Positions 28,001-34,615 of a stretch of DNA of 39,729 nt are shown here, in pieces (position 1 is the first letter of the stretch; every line of letters starts with the position of its first letter). Source of the stretch: Craspedostauros australis. Lineage: Eukaryota. Both the position numbers and the translations under genes were made by a program. The notes beneath the pieces were generated by a model. That model searched no databases. It was not told the origin of the DNA and saw only the letters and a program-made list of their open reading frames with translations. The stretch lies in contig JALAGF010002920.1 of NCBI GenBank assembly GCA_030167865.1, positions 1 through 39,729 on the forward strand, given 5' to 3'.

Positions 28001-28543
28001 GTTTGCTGTTTCGACACGCAGCACGAACGCCTTGACAACTTCTTCAAGCTACGGCAACGACGCCAGGTCCCCACGTGGTTGGAGGAGCAGTATCTCGTCC
28101 TGGCACAGACCATCCTGGCATGCACCGATCCTGTCCCATCGCGCCGACCGACTGCCTACGACTTGGTCCATCGTTTCAGCACGAGTACGACTGCTACGAG
28201 CAGTACTTCTCCTTCGTCCGCTTCTGGCAGAGGTACCTTTGCACTAGCAATCACGGAAAATGGCGAACCAGGAGTAGAAATGAAAGAAGAGACGAACTCC
28301 GTAGCCACAACCACAGCAACGGCAAAGTCAGCGGAGGCAACAGCTTCCGAGGAAGGGGCGAGAACAGCAGTTGCGGATGAGACACAGAGCAACGACGAGA
28401 CAAATGACATTCCCCATGCGATCACCATCGAGATCCTCATGCAACAACTTGCTGAGAAAACAAGGGAGCTGGAAGTGGCAAAGCAGGAACTGCAAGACAA
28501 GGACCATCTAATTGCAAAGCTCAAGCAGGAACATGGACGGTAA
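25016..28543 (+). CDS. eIF2-alpha kinase, HRI-like (1175 aa from the first ATG)
   Basis: [38 protein letters not shown], a large subdomain IV-V insert, [25 protein letters not shown] and GVGT.TYASPEQ are typical of the eIF2AK family. A C-terminal coiled coil follows. Confidence 0.9.
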
Positions 28544-29288
28544 CCCTTGATTCATGACGACACAAAGCGATGTCCAGGTCGATCAAATTCATGCATGAGC
28601 CAATGGATTAGTCAATGACTTATCCAGCGAATGACTGTATGGTTGGTGCTCGGACGAGCTAGGCAAATAGAATAGCATGGCGAAGACAGGATGTTAGCGA
28701 GCTGTTACATTCCGCAAACTTGGCTCTGAGTATGGCACGGGCCAGGAGTCTGAACAAATCAGCGGGACATCGGTCATTCAGAATCGCACATGGTCGCGCT
28801 TTGATGCAACATGTTCAAAAGTCGATGAGGCGCCGATCCCTGCTATTGCTCGTGGTATTGAGAGCTGGCGATGCCCTGCGCGACTTATTCGTATCATGCT
28901 CCGACCTGTGCCGTTTCCTGGTCGCGCGTTGCCGTTTCGAAAGATTCTTGTTTTTCGCAGCATTTGTTGAGACTTCTTGGCGCGCGTTTGTGTGTCTGTT
29001 CTGGTGACATGTACCAACATCGACTCAATCGATCCGTGTCACCAAAAGATAGATATCTTTGGATCTTTTCTCTTGAAACAAGAACGCCAAGAAGCGACGA
29101 ACCAGGATCTCCTATTCCGTTTGCATCGTGTCCGCGATACTGCCCTTCTTTGATGATGTTTGGCGGCTGCAGCCACAACAGTCATTGCACCGCATCCCAT
29201 TGTATCGCATCGCATTGTATTGCATAGTATCGTTTTACATCGCATCGCAGATCCCTCGTTCCATCTCGTCCACACCTTTGAATCGAAC

Positions 29289-29789
29289 ATGTTCTTGAGC
29301 CGACTTTCCTCATCCCGAGCCATCCAGGCTGCCAAGCATGGACGCGGCGCCTTGGCATCCTTGGTGTCATCGCCAGCATCCGCACCGATGCCTTCGCAAA
29401 CTGCAATGCCAGCCATGGCAACGACCAGACTCATGTCCATCCAACGCATTGGAACGGACTACCCGCCCATGTCCAAGCTCGTCATCCACAACGGCATCGT
29501 CTACATGAGCGGCCAAGTCGACACGGCTGCATCCGACATCGAAGGTCAAACAGCCAACGTCCTCGCCATGATCGACGAAGGGTTGGCGGAGGCAGGGACG
29601 TCCAAGTCCAACCTGCTCACAGCGAGCGTGTGGCTGAAGGACATCGAGAAGGACTTTGAGACCATGAATGGTATTTACACCGCGTGGCTTGACCCGGACA
29701 ACAAGCCGGTGCGTGCCACGGTGGAGTCCCCGATGGCGTTACCAGAGATTTTGATTGAGATCCAGGTCACAGCAACCACAGGAGAGTAA
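29289..29789 (+). CDS. Rid (YjgF/YER057c/UK114) family enamine/imine deaminase, Rid2/YoaB-like, with a predicted mitochondrial presequence (166 aa)
   Basis: Mature region MSIQRIG..MSKLVIHNGIVYMSGQV..QTANVL..ID..L..AGT.KS.LL.A.VWL.D...DF..MN..Y.AW..P.RATV..LIEI retains the catalytic Arg. The first ~48 aa are Ser/Arg/Ala-rich with no acidic residues. Confidence 0.92.
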   Translation: MFLSRLSSSRAIQAAKHGRGALASLVSSPASAPMPSQTAMPAMATTRLMSIQRIGTDYPPMSKLVIHNGIVYMSGQVDTAASDIEGQTANVLAMIDEGLAEAGTSKSNLLTASVWLKDIEKDFETMNGIYTAWLDPDNKPVRATVESPMALPEILIEIQVTATTGE

Positions 29790-30224
29790 AATTGCGGTAG
29801 TTGAAGGCACATCAGCAGTTCCTTCCGAGCGGATGCGTATGCGCTTGCGATCAGGCTGCAGAGTTGCATGGTCCTTCACAAATCTACCGCGTCATAGTGC
29901 TCGACAACTATGATATTATATAATATGATGATACAACAGTTGTCATCGGACTACGAGTAGAGAGTTCCGCAATCATTCCCGCCGTCCTATGGCACTCAAC
30001 ACTCACACGTTGCCATACGGAGTCGAAGCATGCAACAGTATTTTACTAAGAGACTACTTTGCGATACTGGATTGTACTATACAATATTTGGTGACGCTAC
30101 TACAGATACGAAAATGACAGTGGCTGAAGCAGCAGTATTCTGTTTGCCCGTGCTACCGCTACCGCCGGTGGTATTGGTGCGGGCTCATGCCTCTCTGCTC
30201 ATCCCTCGCCATTTGACCAGCGAA

Positions 30225-31646
30225 TTAAGCCTTGACGTTCGCAAATGCTTGCTCCAAGTCCGCGATGATATCATCTACGTTTTCGATGCCGATGCTCAAA
30301 CGCACCATCTCTGGTGCAATGCCCGCGGCCAGTTGCCCCTCCTCGCTCAGCTGGCTGTGCGTGGTGGTCGCTGGGTGGATCGCGAGCGACTTGGCATCGC
30401 CGACATTGGCGACGTGGCTGAAAAGTTCCAGGTGCTCGATGAAGGTTCTGCCGGCGGCTGCCGCATCACCCGTCTTCAACCCAAACACGACCATGCCGCC
30501 ACCCTTGCCCTTGAGGTACTTCTTGTTCTTTTCGTACTGCTGGTCGTCCTCGAGGCCGGGGTAACGCACCCAGGCGACCTTGTCGTGGTCCTTGAGATAC
30601 TTGGCAACTGCGAGGCCATTTTCGCAGTGACGTTCCATGCGCAGACTCAGAGTCTCGATGCCCTGGAGGATGGTCCATGCATTGTCCGGCGACAAGCACG
30701 CGCCCAGGTTTCGGAGAGGGACCGTGAGCGCGCGGAGTTTGAAAGCCAATGGCGCGAGCTCCTCCGGCAAGTCGTGTCCCCAGCGCAAGCCTCCGTAGGA
30801 ACCATCGGGCTTGTCGTAGAGCGGGTGGTTGCCGCCTGCCCAATTGAATCCTCCTTTGTCCACGATCATTCCGCCGATGCACGTGCCGTGCCCTCCGACC
30901 CATTTCGTCAACGACGTGACGATGATGTCCGCCCCATGATCGAAGGGTCGGCACAGGTATGGTGTGGAGAAGGTGGAGTCCACGATGAGGGGGAGGCCCA
31001 GCGATTTGGCCCCCTTCGAAATGGCTTCCAGGTCCGTGACATGCAATGCCGGGTTGGCCACAGACTCGCAGAAGAAGGCGCGCGTCTTGCTGTCAGCTGC
31101 GGCGGCGAAGGCGTCAGGATCTTCCCCATCCACGAAGCGGACCTCGATGCCCATGGTCGGGAGGATGTCGTTGAACTGGGTGTACGTGCCTCCGTACAAC
31201 GCCGACGAACTCACGATGTTGTCGCCGGCGGACGCCAAGTTCAAAATCGCATAGAAGATGGCGCTCGTCCCACTCGCGACCGAGAGGGCGCTCAGTGGAT
31301 GGCCGCCTTCCAACATGGCGTACCGACTCTCCAGCACATGATTGGTGGGATTCATCAGGCGAGAGTAGATGTTGCCCAATTCCTTCAAGGCGAACAGGTT
31401 GGCCGCATGCTCGGTGTCGCGGAACACGAAGGGGGTCGTCCGGTACAGGGGGACGCCGCGAGGCGCACCTTGGCCGAGCCCGAACGTACCTTGCTTATCT
31501 GGCGTGTACCCGCCATGCAGGGCGATAGTGTCAAAACCAGAAAGAGCGCGGATCGCTTCGGTTGTCCTGGCGGATGCGCGCAAATGGGATGGTGAGCGCA
31601 TCGAACCGATCACGCGCGATGCCTTCGAAGTGAAAACTGCCCTCAT
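30225..31646 (-). CDS. metY: O-acetylhomoserine (thiol)-lyase / sulfhydrylase (MetY/MET17 type, PLP-dependent), with a predicted mitochondrial presequence (473 aa)
   Basis: GFDTIALHGG, GNIYSRLMNPT, LYGGT, SLTKWVGGHG (PLP lysine), the MetY-specific FNW...Y.G insert, ETLSLRMERH, ANVGDAKSLAIHPATTTHSQL and VRLSIGIE. The N-terminal ~36 aa are Arg/Ser-rich. Confidence 0.95.
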   Translation of the reverse strand: MRAVFTSKASRVIGSMRSPSHLRASARTTEAIRALSGFDTIALHGGYTPDKQGTFGLGQGAPRGVPLYRTTPFVFRDTEHAANLFALKELGNIYSRLMNPTNHVLESRYAMLEGGHPLSALSVASGTSAIFYAILNLASAGDNIVSSSALYGGTYTQFNDILPTMGIEVRFVDGEDPDAFAAAADSKTRAFFCESVANPALHVTDLEAISKGAKSLGLPLIVDSTFSTPYLCRPFDHGADIIVTSLTKWVGGHGTCIGGMIVDKGGFNWAGGNHPLYDKPDGSYGGLRWGHDLPEELAPLAFKLRALTVPLRNLGACLSPDNAWTILQGIETLSLRMERHCENGLAVAKYLKDHDKVAWVRYPGLEDDQQYEKNKKYLKGKGGGMVVFGLKTGDAAAAGRTFIEHLELFSHVANVGDAKSLAIHPATTTHSQLSEEGQLAAGIAPEMVRLSIGIENVDDIIADLEQAFANVKA

Positions 31647-32485
31647 GTTGATTGGTGTTGGTGTTGGTGTTGATGATTGTGGTGGTGAGGCGGTCGTTGG
31701 ATCTTATCGCTGTTGCTGATTTTGTGGGAACGAGCACAGACAGATTGGGTTCTTGGTGTCATCGCAAGCGAAGGCGTCATTCAACACACTACCGTATCTT
31801 TTGGTCGTCACGCCTGCCGCGGCGTTGAGCATGGCTCATTTCGCCATCAGCGATGCCGAGCGCATGTGGTAGCGCGTTGATCTGTTCCACGCGTTTTGCT
31901 GGGAAGGTTGGAAAGGAGACACGCCGTGTTGATCGGCAGCTTGAAACTGTCAGGCAGAATCCAAACACGCTGTCTGCGCACCGTGTCGTGACTCTTCTGT
32001 CTCCCCTCTTCCCAGATGTTCGCGTTTTAGATTTCAATGGGTAGAGAAACAGTGGTGCACGTGCTTGTGATGAGGAGGCACCTGGCGCGGTCCTGCCTGA
32101 GCGCTTTGGAGGATGCTGATCCATGCGGTGCCAGAATTGTGATGAGTTTGGATTTCAATGGTCGGAACGTGCTTGAAGATCCGATGGACACCCAGAAAAG
32201 TATCTTCCCTCATCCACATAACGTTGACGCGGCGATCCGATTAGGATGGTCGCGATTCTCCACATGAAAATGCACAGGCACGTTGCAGTTCGGGCGTGTT
32301 TGGTGCAGAACGTCCGGTGCTCCGTGGCATTCTGAGGCCGGCGATGAATGGTACGGTAGAATAGATAATATCATGCTATACGATAGATAGCTAGATATTT
32401 TACAATACGATTTTGTCGTCAACAACAGTGGATTGCCACAGAATAGTAGAGAAGAGCAGAGCAGAGCAGAATACTCTGGATTGAT

Positions 32486-34615
32486 CTAACTGAAGGTGTC
32501 GTCCATCATCCGTCGCTTTCCCTTCACCTCGTACTTTCCGTACTTCTTCCATCGTGACTTCTTGATGACATCTTTCGGCTCGGGGATGCGGTGCCAGATG
32601 TTGAAGTCTTCTGTCTGTGTTGGGTGACCAGACACGGTGGCGCCGTCTTGCTCTTCGAAGACTCCAACACCTCCGCAGACATGGATCGTGCCATCAACAC
32701 CGACCACGATGGAATGGACGAATCCGCATTCGACGTCAATCGCCTTGACCGGCGCATCGGCAGTGCCCACGTGTACTCTTCTTGGCAATAGCGCGTTATC
32801 GCACTCAGTGCCAAGTCCAATGCGCCCTCGATCACGCTTGCCCCAGCCGTATACATCACCGGTGGTGGTCACCGCCATGCTGGTGTCCACACCCGCGCTC
32901 ATTTGCACAATCCGAATTTGTTCATCATCGAAGTGCTGAATTCTCATAGGAATCATGGTGGGGTTGGTGTCGCCGTGACCGAGACAGCCGCTGATTCCAG
33001 CGCCGCAAGAGTACATACCACCATGCTCATCAAGCAACAGCGTGTGCCGATGACCTGCGCTTGCGCCCACAATCTTGATCGTCTTCATGGAGTCGATGAT
33101 CTTCGGGATGCACTGATCGCTCGAGTCCTCCAACGACAGCTGTGCGATGCGGTCCAGGTACGCGATCAGCTCTTGCGCTGCGTTCATCACGGGCGGTTCG
33201 GTGTCAGCGCCACCATCATCAGATGCTGATGGCTGTGGTGCTTCTGCTACTTCTTGTGCAGGTTCAGGCGCAGCTGCCGGTGCCGCAGGTGCCTGTGCAT
33301 CGGCTTCTTCTGCGTTCGCCCGATCCGCGAGCGTCTCCATCTCATCCTCAAACCCTGCGAGGGCTGCCTCCGGGTCATGATCGAAGGGGGTGAAGCTGCG
33401 CCCCAGGACGCCGAAATGGCCAAGCCCAAAGGTGAAGACCTCGCCCTCCTCCGTGACTGCGACTGTGTGACGTGCTCCGCAGCTCACCATGGCGATGCAT
33501 TCATCTTCCAGATCCCCAGCCGTGACCTGAACCGGGGACACCTGAGGCCGTTTGTCGGCGTGGCCCAGCTGTCCGCAGAAGCCGTCGCCCCAGGTGTACA
33601 AGTCTCCGTCTGTCGTGATGGCCGCGCTGTGCAGTTCACCTGCCGAGACGCAGACGCAGCGGACGCCCGAGAGCGCATCGACGTACTGCGGCCTCAGCAC
33701 GTCGGGCAGCTGCTTTCCACCAGAGTACCCGTGCCCCAGAGCTCCGTACTGACCAGTACCAAACGACAGCACGCGCCCGGTGGATGTCAGCAACAGCGTG
33801 TGTGCGACGCGCACAATGCCACCACCGGCAGACACCTGCACGATACGAATGCCGTACCCGATGCCACCGAGAATCATCTTGGGCTCCCGCTGATCCATCC
33901 TCCTGCCATGGCCCAGCTGCCCGCGCTTTCCGACGCCCCATGTCGCGATGCCCGAGCCGCCGGCACCTGTCGAGCCTCCGCCGCCGACGCGACAGACGGA
34001 GTGCTCCGGGGAAACGGACACGAACCGGCCGTTGACGAATGGCGGGAGCAGCGCAGGTTCCTTGCCACCATAGTTCTGCGTGGCGTATCCCAGCGCCGCT
34101 TCATCGAGGAACCGCAGGTACGATACGAATTCGTTGACGAAGGTCTTCAACGTCTTGATCTTGACGGTGAGACGACCGGTTTCGCCGCCGCCGTAGGAGC
34201 GCTTGACGATCTCGCGGGCGTCGTCCTGGCTGGCACACAGGTCGATGCGACCCACGGCGCCCTGCATGGCCTTGTCGGGTCTGTGCAAACGAGACATGAG
34301 GATGGGATATCGCCCATCGATCAGCAGCCGGCAGAAGTCCTTGCAGCAGAAGGTCATGACGCCGATGTCACGTGCGGACAGGAACTTGAAGATGTGATGC
34401 ACGAAGTCATCGGGCAAAAGTTGGAAACAGTTGGGTCCAGAGATGGTGGCTGCAGCCCCGCTAGAAAGTGCCGATCCTTTGCTGGATGCGCCATTGGTGC
34501 TGCCGCCCTTGGCTGTCTTTTTCTCCTTCTGCTCCTTCGCGAGCCGCCGTGCCTCGCGCTTCTGCTCCAACAGCAGCTTCTTTTGCGCCTTCTCGGCGAT
34601 GGTCAATTTGGGCAT
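32486..34615 (-). CDS. F-box + RCC1-repeat beta-propeller protein (709 aa)
   Basis: F-box-like [29 protein letters not shown]. Repeats of the form V.AG..HS/T....G.v..WG.g..GqLG occur about 7 times. Lys-rich termini. Confidence 0.88.

Follow-up and report, generated by a model that had tools for sequence, protein, structure and literature searches.

We describe two neighbouring genes on a 39,729-nucleotide stretch of DNA from Craspedostauros australis (positions 1 to 39,729 of the forward strand of contig JALAGF010002920.1, NCBI GenBank assembly GCA_030167865.1; hereafter the window): a small gene for a predicted Rid2 (YoaB-type) imine/enamine deaminase and, tail-to-tail with it, a larger gene for a putative sulfhydrylase of the MetY/Met17 type. 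It is probable that the two are nuclear genes independent of each other, each with bacterial ancestry, which are neighbours by chance in a compact and functionally unsorted diatom-like stretch and do not constitute a conserved two-gene module. Since their adjacency is kept in no related sequence that was examined, we consider the pair to be ordinary neighbours, and the convergent layout and the 435-base-pair (bp) spacer would be incidental. Apart from lying side by side in a single genome, this Rid2 and this MetY showed no link, and the tempting idea that they represent a metabolic gene cluster in a eukaryote has been dropped as unsupported. The main remaining interest is a clade of Rid2-type deaminases in eukaryotic algae that carries a conserved mitochondrial-type presequence.

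The conserved presequence most likely routes Rid2 to the mitochondria, where the enzyme would act on the reactive imino acids and enamines that escape from amino-acid oxidoreductases dependent on flavin adenine dinucleotide (FAD) and from pyridoxal phosphate (PLP) enzymes generally, and destroy them by hydrolysis. This role as a general mitochondrial imine/enamine deaminase is suggested by the activity of the family, the conserved presequence and the contexts of the bacterial genes. The second enzyme would, judging from its family, make homocysteine, and perhaps cysteine, by direct sulfhydrylation, and it too appears to bear a mitochondrial-type extension here, so that it may be mitochondrial or dual-targeted in Craspedostauros australis.

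Context of the two genes in related sequences

The initial annotation had proposed a two-gene functional cluster, and this proposal was not borne out by synteny across related sequences. We scanned metagenome contigs with the Rid alignment and oriented the resulting 80 loci as in the window; in none of these loci with a Rid2 relative did tblastn reveal a MetY gene at E <= 1e-5, and at E <= 10 only chance-level matches appeared. At least 1.9 kilobases (kb) of sequence lay downstream of the Rid match in 47 of the loci and on one side of it in 54, and the corresponding numbers for the 44 loci at >=56% identity were 25 and 28. Among 23 bacterial Rid loci, a MetY-like gene was observed in a single one (L103), with 45% identity and at a distance of ~7 kb from a Rid gene of only 27% identity. 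Four of the five bacterial genomes with a close Rid2 do have MetY, but outside the Rid loci. In Seminavis robusta, the Rid gene lies on an 87,552-bp contig and the MetY gene on another of 122,207 bp. Moreover, names of the Verrucomicrobia type were found for none of the 23 bacterial Rid2 loci, whereas all eight named bacterial MetY matches among the top 120 carry such names.

The neighbours of bacterial Rid2 genes pointed in the same direction. An FAD oxidoreductase gene (PF01266) stands directly upstream of Rid2 in 6 of 15 bacterial loci, and a Cys/Met PLP enzyme was the immediate neighbour in none of the 15 (34 of 104 open reading frames (ORFs) scanned in both cases). The nearest bacterial Rid2 genes are thus paired with FAD oxidoreductases and not with Cys/Met PLP enzymes, a context that fits the published Rid2 partners and that differs from the window, where Rid2 has no FAD oxidoreductase neighbour. 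Clusters of RidA, Rid1 or Rid2 with cystathionine beta-lyase have been described in bacteria (PMC4433059, Niehaus et al. 2015). The window resembles the bacterial Rid clusters with PLP enzymes or FAD amine oxidases given there in that a Rid gene adjoins a Cys/Met-family PLP enzyme gene; however, those clusters are operon-type and recurrent, whereas the pair in the window is eukaryotic, has a convergent layout and did not recur in any of the 80 plus 23 related loci.

Gene fusions gave no sign of a partnership either. Two longer Rid2 relatives hold only PF01042, although this search of longer proteins constitutes weak evidence, and PF01053 was absent from all 14 multi-domain Rid representatives. 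The fusion partners among these 14 were DAO, rhodanese, HopJ, RRM, a sub-threshold piece of a PLP-decarboxylase and further Rid domains. In P0352, a Rid2-like domain is joined to two rhodanese domains, a partner of the sulfurtransferase type, and in P0371 it is fused to an FAD oxidoreductase of the DAO family.

Family identity of the two proteins

The small protein matched PF01042 over residues 62-163 (E 3.6e-20). Assignment to the archetypal RidA subfamily was rejected because the protein scored only 49.2 bits against the RidA model TIGR00004, under the cut-off of 106.25. Its top solved matches were PA5083 (E 2.1e-25, 92.2 bits), 9bjy and PSPTO_0102 (E 7e-24, 87.3 bits), and RidA-type solved chains reached at most 46 bits (E 1e-4 to 5e-11). 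Both PA5083 and PSPTO_0102 are classed as Rid2 in Table 3 of PMC5619798, a paper in which YoaB is also named Rid2. A tree of 87 rows and 120 columns, built by a quick search and weakly resolved in its inner branching, revealed a clade of 76 rows (support of 98 in the Shimodaira-Hasegawa-like approximate likelihood ratio test, SH-aLRT) that unites the protein of the window and its algal relatives with E. coli YoaB and with proteins of proteobacteria and actinobacteria, to the exclusion of RidA, RutC and YjgH from E. coli. Sequence identity was 38% to YoaB, 28% to RutC, 26% to RidA and 21% to YjgH. R142 and E157, invariant across 24 Rid2 relatives, align with the Arg (Arg105) and Glu (Glu120) of RidA and also with YoaB, and YjgH has Trp. 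Conservation of this Arg and Glu is the rule given in section 5 of PMC4433059. Judged on its sequence, the small protein is a Rid2 protein of the YoaB type, as the initial annotation had called it.

The protein of the window thus shares with YoaB, PA5083 and PSPTO_0102 the domain, the clade with YoaB and the active-site Arg and Glu, and imine deaminase activity has been shown for bacterial members of this group (PMC5619798, PMC4433059). Unlike bacterial Rid2, it is eukaryotic and nuclear-encoded, and it has an extension of 48-49 residues resembling a presequence, which recurs in its algal relatives. An organelle-sent Rid deaminase in an organelle that metabolises amino acids is likewise known from plants, namely 5hp7 ("Reactive Intermediate Deaminase A, chloroplastic"); however, this is a member of the archetypal RidA subfamily and matches the Rid2 of the window only at E 3.9e-6. 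Yeast Mmf1, which is mitochondrial, is also a protein of the archetypal RidA subfamily. The named close relatives of the window's Rid2 are all eukaryotic (Asterionellopsis, Odontella, Thalassiosira, Seminavis and Prymnesium), and relatives listed with 105 residues stem from the same genes, an internal Met having been taken as the start. According to the abstract of PMC5619798, Rid1-7 are "present only in prokaryotes", and section 5 of PMC4433059 states that they "occur primarily in bacteria". Among open-licence PubMed Central papers and bioRxiv, we found none that describes Rid2 in a eukaryote.

Some Rid2-domain relatives carry two or three Rid domains per chain (P0241, P0248, P0258, P0281 and others; also P0244, P0259 and P0341), and the multi-Rid chains comprise 374-445 residues with three matched stretches. 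They represent the same idea as the "3x-RidA" covalent trimers described in PMC4433059. On some eukaryote-like metagenome contigs, two Rid2 copies stand in tandem (L061:1246-2903, L075:3309-4577 and L078:493-1141), and one copy in these contigs is split, in an intron-like manner, between query residues 83/84.

The large protein passed TIGR01326 with 578.6 bits against a cut-off of 495.1, its residues 38-469 covering model positions 2-418 of 418, and it matched PF01053 at E 6.7e-123. The top solved matches were the O-acetyl-L-homoserine sulfhydrylases 7kb0 and 2ctz, at ~450 bits over the full length; yeast homocysteine/cysteine synthase 8ovh scored 377 bits. K248, which we take to be the PLP-binding lysine, was invariant in the aligned MetY sequences. 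From these features the protein is assigned as an O-acetylhomoserine/O-acetylserine sulfhydrylase of the MetY/Met17 type, in agreement with the MetY call made initially. It has in common with MetY and yeast Met17 the TIGR01326 score, the full-length match to 7kb0 and 2ctz and the Lys of S-x-T-K; however, it is far closer to Verrucomicrobia-named MetY (~70-73% identity) than to the yeast enzyme, it bears a basic N-terminal extension that most of its relatives do not have, and it contains a 7-residue insert, G-L-G-Q-G-A-P, that is common to the eukaryote-type clade. Direct sulfhydrylation in diatoms has already been proposed in PMC4523565, and a Phaeodactylum protein named "O-acetylhomoserine" is represented by 8 peptides in PMC5070409.

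The named eukaryotic matches of MetY come from diatoms and Pseudopedinella (66-80% identity), and the named bacterial ones are of the Verrucomicrobia type at 70-73%. In a MetY tree of 78 rows, sampled from top matches only and therefore carrying no direction or donor of any transfer, 49 eukaryote-type rows lie on one side of a branch (SH-aLRT 99) and are sister to 23 bacterial-type rows (84); these two groups together are split (99) from six proteobacterial/actinobacterial MetY, which were taken as tblastn segments from Rid2-holding genomes. The bacterial-type rows were 22 of the 65 full-length bacterial-type matches plus P0188, and P0121 and the N-truncated or odd eukaryote-type P0136, P0141, P0154 and P0170 were left out. 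The putative direct-sulfhydrylation enzyme of these algae is nearest to MetY of the Verrucomicrobia type. The initial view that both mature domains are bacterial-type held true, by the YoaB clade for Rid2 and by the Verrucomicrobia-named sister group for MetY. Within the MetY tree, the protein of the window branches off as the sister of the remaining 48 eukaryote-type rows taken together (support 91), although in the Rid2 tree the window's protein nests among diatom sequences. The omitted P0121 is a MetY-like protein of 816 residues (1106 bits) that starts mid-domain; it may have arisen by duplication in tandem or through the merging of gene calls.

N-terminal extensions and possible shared targeting

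As presequence-like we counted an N-terminus that reaches beyond the bacterial start, is basic and acid-poor, lacks a hydrophobic signal core and has R in position -3 relative to a plausible cleavage point. The motif R-x-[FLMIYV]-[SAGT] would correspond to the R-3 type of site cut by the mitochondrial processing peptidase. The first residue of E. coli YoaB aligns with residue 49/50 of the window's Rid2, which leaves an extension of 48-49 residues with a net charge of +5, no acidic residue, a maximal 9-residue hydropathy of 1.40 without a signal-peptide-like core, and the junction T46-R47-L48-M49/S50. Bacterial MetY starts at residue 36-38 of the window's protein, and the resulting extension of ~36 residues has a net charge of +6, one acidic residue, a maximal hydropathy of 0.29 without a hydrophobic core, and the junction I32-R33-A34-L35/S36. 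The acid-poor extensions and both junction motifs are therefore present as initially noted. Windows of 36 residues with a charge of +6 or more did not occur in the mature parts (0/82 in Rid2 and 0/402 in MetY). Plastid targeting was considered for both proteins and rejected, as a hydrophobic signal core is missing from both and no aromatic residue stands where cleavage could plausibly occur.

The two extensions differ clearly in their conservation. We scored 120 Rid2 relatives, of which 56 were scorable, with a Met start and a conserved block preceded by 15 residues or more (45 others were short, mostly through internal-Met calls, and 18 had no anchor); 55 of the 56 have an extension with a net charge of at least +2. 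The motif R-x-[FLMIYV]-[SAGT] stood just before the mature block at 33 of 48 distinct Rid2 junctions, compared with 15 of 1460 control windows. On this evidence, the eukaryotic Rid2 clade is probably mitochondrial. For MetY, a basic extension of at least 18 residues occurs in only 12 of the 43 scorable relatives of the eukaryote type and is missing from 31, and the state of the extension changes at least nine times on the MetY tree. Given that the presequence-like form is restricted to 12 of the 43 relatives, co-localisation does not hold for these enzymes in general. The mitochondrial-like presequences claimed for both proteins were thus supported for Rid2 and, for MetY, in this organism and a minority of its relatives, and of the proposed co-localised mitochondrial pair it is only the presequence-like character of both extensions here that stood. 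This variation of the MetY N-terminus bears on the site of homocysteine synthesis in these algae. In one MetY relative, P0167, a hydrophobic signal-like N-terminal stretch is followed by G-S-A-F-S-P; this motif resembles the plastid cleavage motifs in Table 1 of PMC4523565, and the enzyme may be plastid-targeted in some alga.

One could propose that the two genes form a lineage-specific mitochondrial pair, in which MetY has moved to the mitochondria, the adjacent Rid2 quenches 2-aminocrotonate/2-iminobutanoate or 2-aminoacrylate arising from side reactions of MetY, and the tail-to-tail layout couples expression. The underlying chemistry is sound, since Cys/Met PLP enzymes can release reactive enamines and Rid proteins hydrolyse them. 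Both N-termini are presequence-like, and the MetY of the window lacks an internal Met close to where the mature part begins; its possible starts, M1 and M16, therefore both leave a basic extension. The overlap of 15 bases between two sequencing contigs covering the two 3' ends (described below) and the occasional clustering of cystathionine beta-lyase with Rid genes in bacteria (PMC4433059) would also favour such a pair. Nevertheless, we regard it as highly unlikely: the linkage was not conserved in the metagenome loci, the bacterial loci or Seminavis, no fusion was seen in the 2 longer relatives or the 14 multi-domain representatives, and the Rid2 presequence is general whereas that of MetY is patchy, implying that Rid2 predates and outlasts any mitochondrial MetY.

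It is also conceivable, but in our judgement unlikely, that MetY is not, or not only, mitochondrial, with a weak or dual-targeting extension on an enzyme that is mainly cytosolic as in yeast and that has no compartment in common with Rid2. Short or acidic N-termini are the rule in 31 of the 43 relatives, including the nearest ones (P0122-P0126, 78-80% identity), whose N-termini are short and acidic. Several long forms have a Met ~8 residues before G-F-D-T, exactly where the short forms start, which suggests alternative starts. Furthermore, homoserine acetyltransferase of T. pseudonana is predicted to be cytosolic in Table 1 of PMC4523565. The protein of the window, however, lacks such a Met near its mature start, and its extension has a charge of +6 and an R-3-like site. 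The same Table 1 reports a mitochondrial TargetP call ("M", 0.765, class 3) for a T. pseudonana "MgL-like" protein of 487 residues, probably the MetY orthologue.

Several points weigh against our interpretation of the two genes as chance neighbours. The basic, acid-poor extensions of both proteins end in R-x-hydrophobic/S, and co-localisation in this organism is accordingly possible. Some bacteria do cluster Rid genes with PLP enzymes of the Cys/Met type, such as cystathionine beta-lyase (PMC4433059), and for one fixed pair it is a priori improbable that a Rid gene should adjoin a Cys/Met PLP gene, of which there are few. Even the closest Rid locus is only 66% identical, which leaves room for a young lineage-specific linkage. 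In addition, some of the 80 loci are near-duplicates recovered from related samples, the loci carry no taxon names, and many of them are short. The boldest alternative would be that diatoms and further algae with chlorophyll c, represented among the matches by a Prymnesium relative, import a bacterial-derived Rid2 into their mitochondria as the first eukaryotic members of a "prokaryote-only" subfamily, that MetY has here been relocated to the same compartment, and that the adjacent genes represent a young lineage-specific pair for homocysteine synthesis and damage control; taken as a whole, this is a long shot.

Features of the locus and the surrounding window

Coordinates of the Rid2 and MetY genes and their parts are listed in the table below. 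Both ORFs are considered real genes because of their homology (PF01042; TIGR01326 and PF01053), and both proteins align with their relatives from end to end without breaks, indicating that the coding parts are single exons. The ORF coordinates and these unbroken alignments agree with the two intronless, tail-to-tail genes ~435 bp apart that had been noted initially.

Table. Features of the Rid2 and MetY genes (positions in the window)
Feature	Positions	Strand	Basis
Leader 5' of the Rid2 start codon, no ATG	29194..29288	+	covered by X1 contig
Rid2 ORF, 166 amino acids	29289..29789	+	
N-terminal extension of Rid2 (residues 1-49), resembling a mitochondrial presequence, last residues T-R-L-M/S	29289..29435	+	charge, YoaB start point, relatives
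Predicted Rid2 (YoaB-type) domain and stop codon	29436..29789	+	PF01042, solved matches, YoaB clade
Rid2 Arg142	29712-29714	+	conserved active-site position
Rid2 Glu157	29757-29759	+	conserved active-site position
Spacer between the stop codons, 435 bp, probably two 3' untranslated regions	29790..30224		X1 contig overlap
MetY ORF, 473 amino acids	30225..31646	-	
Predicted MetY/Met17-type catalytic part and stop codon	30225..31541	-	TIGR01326, PF01053, solved matches
MetY Lys248 in S-L-T-K-W, invariant	30903-30905	-	alignment of 26 sequences
N-terminal extension of MetY (residues 1-35), resembling a presequence, last residues I-R-A-L/S	31542..31646	-	charge; absent from bacterial MetY

A contig of 879 nucleotides from sequencing run X1, which can only be guessed to be RNA, spans 29194-30072 with 0 differences, and reading of the sequence revealed no ATG in the upstream stretch 29194-29289. 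If the run is indeed RNA, translation from the first AUG would yield the complete Rid2 extension. This contig and a further X1 contig (30058-30813) share 15 bases (30058-30072) inside the spacer, an overlap that would fit convergent transcripts with meeting 3' ends if the run is RNA. An Rfam search of 28500-32500 returned no match at E <= 0.1.

The window is ordinary eukaryotic nuclear DNA. Its other large ORFs encode a Tim17-family protein, STT3, ankyrin, kinesin, a synoviolin-like RING ligase, leucine-rich repeat, kinase and RCC1/F-box proteins and a cyclase fragment, and no sulfur-metabolism gene besides MetY was found among the annotated large ORFs. The Tim17/Tim22/Tim23-family protein (PF02466, E 2.3e-31) lies at 436-1389, ~28 kb off and by its position unrelated to the pair. 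An ORF of 521 amino acids (30030-31595, + strand) runs antisense over nearly all of MetY and probably reflects a shadow frame in G+C-rich coding DNA. Just 5' of the Rid2 start, at 29180-29250, short words of the CATTG/CATCGCA type are nearly repeated, and they translate as H-C-I-A-S repeats in an ORF at 28871..29227.

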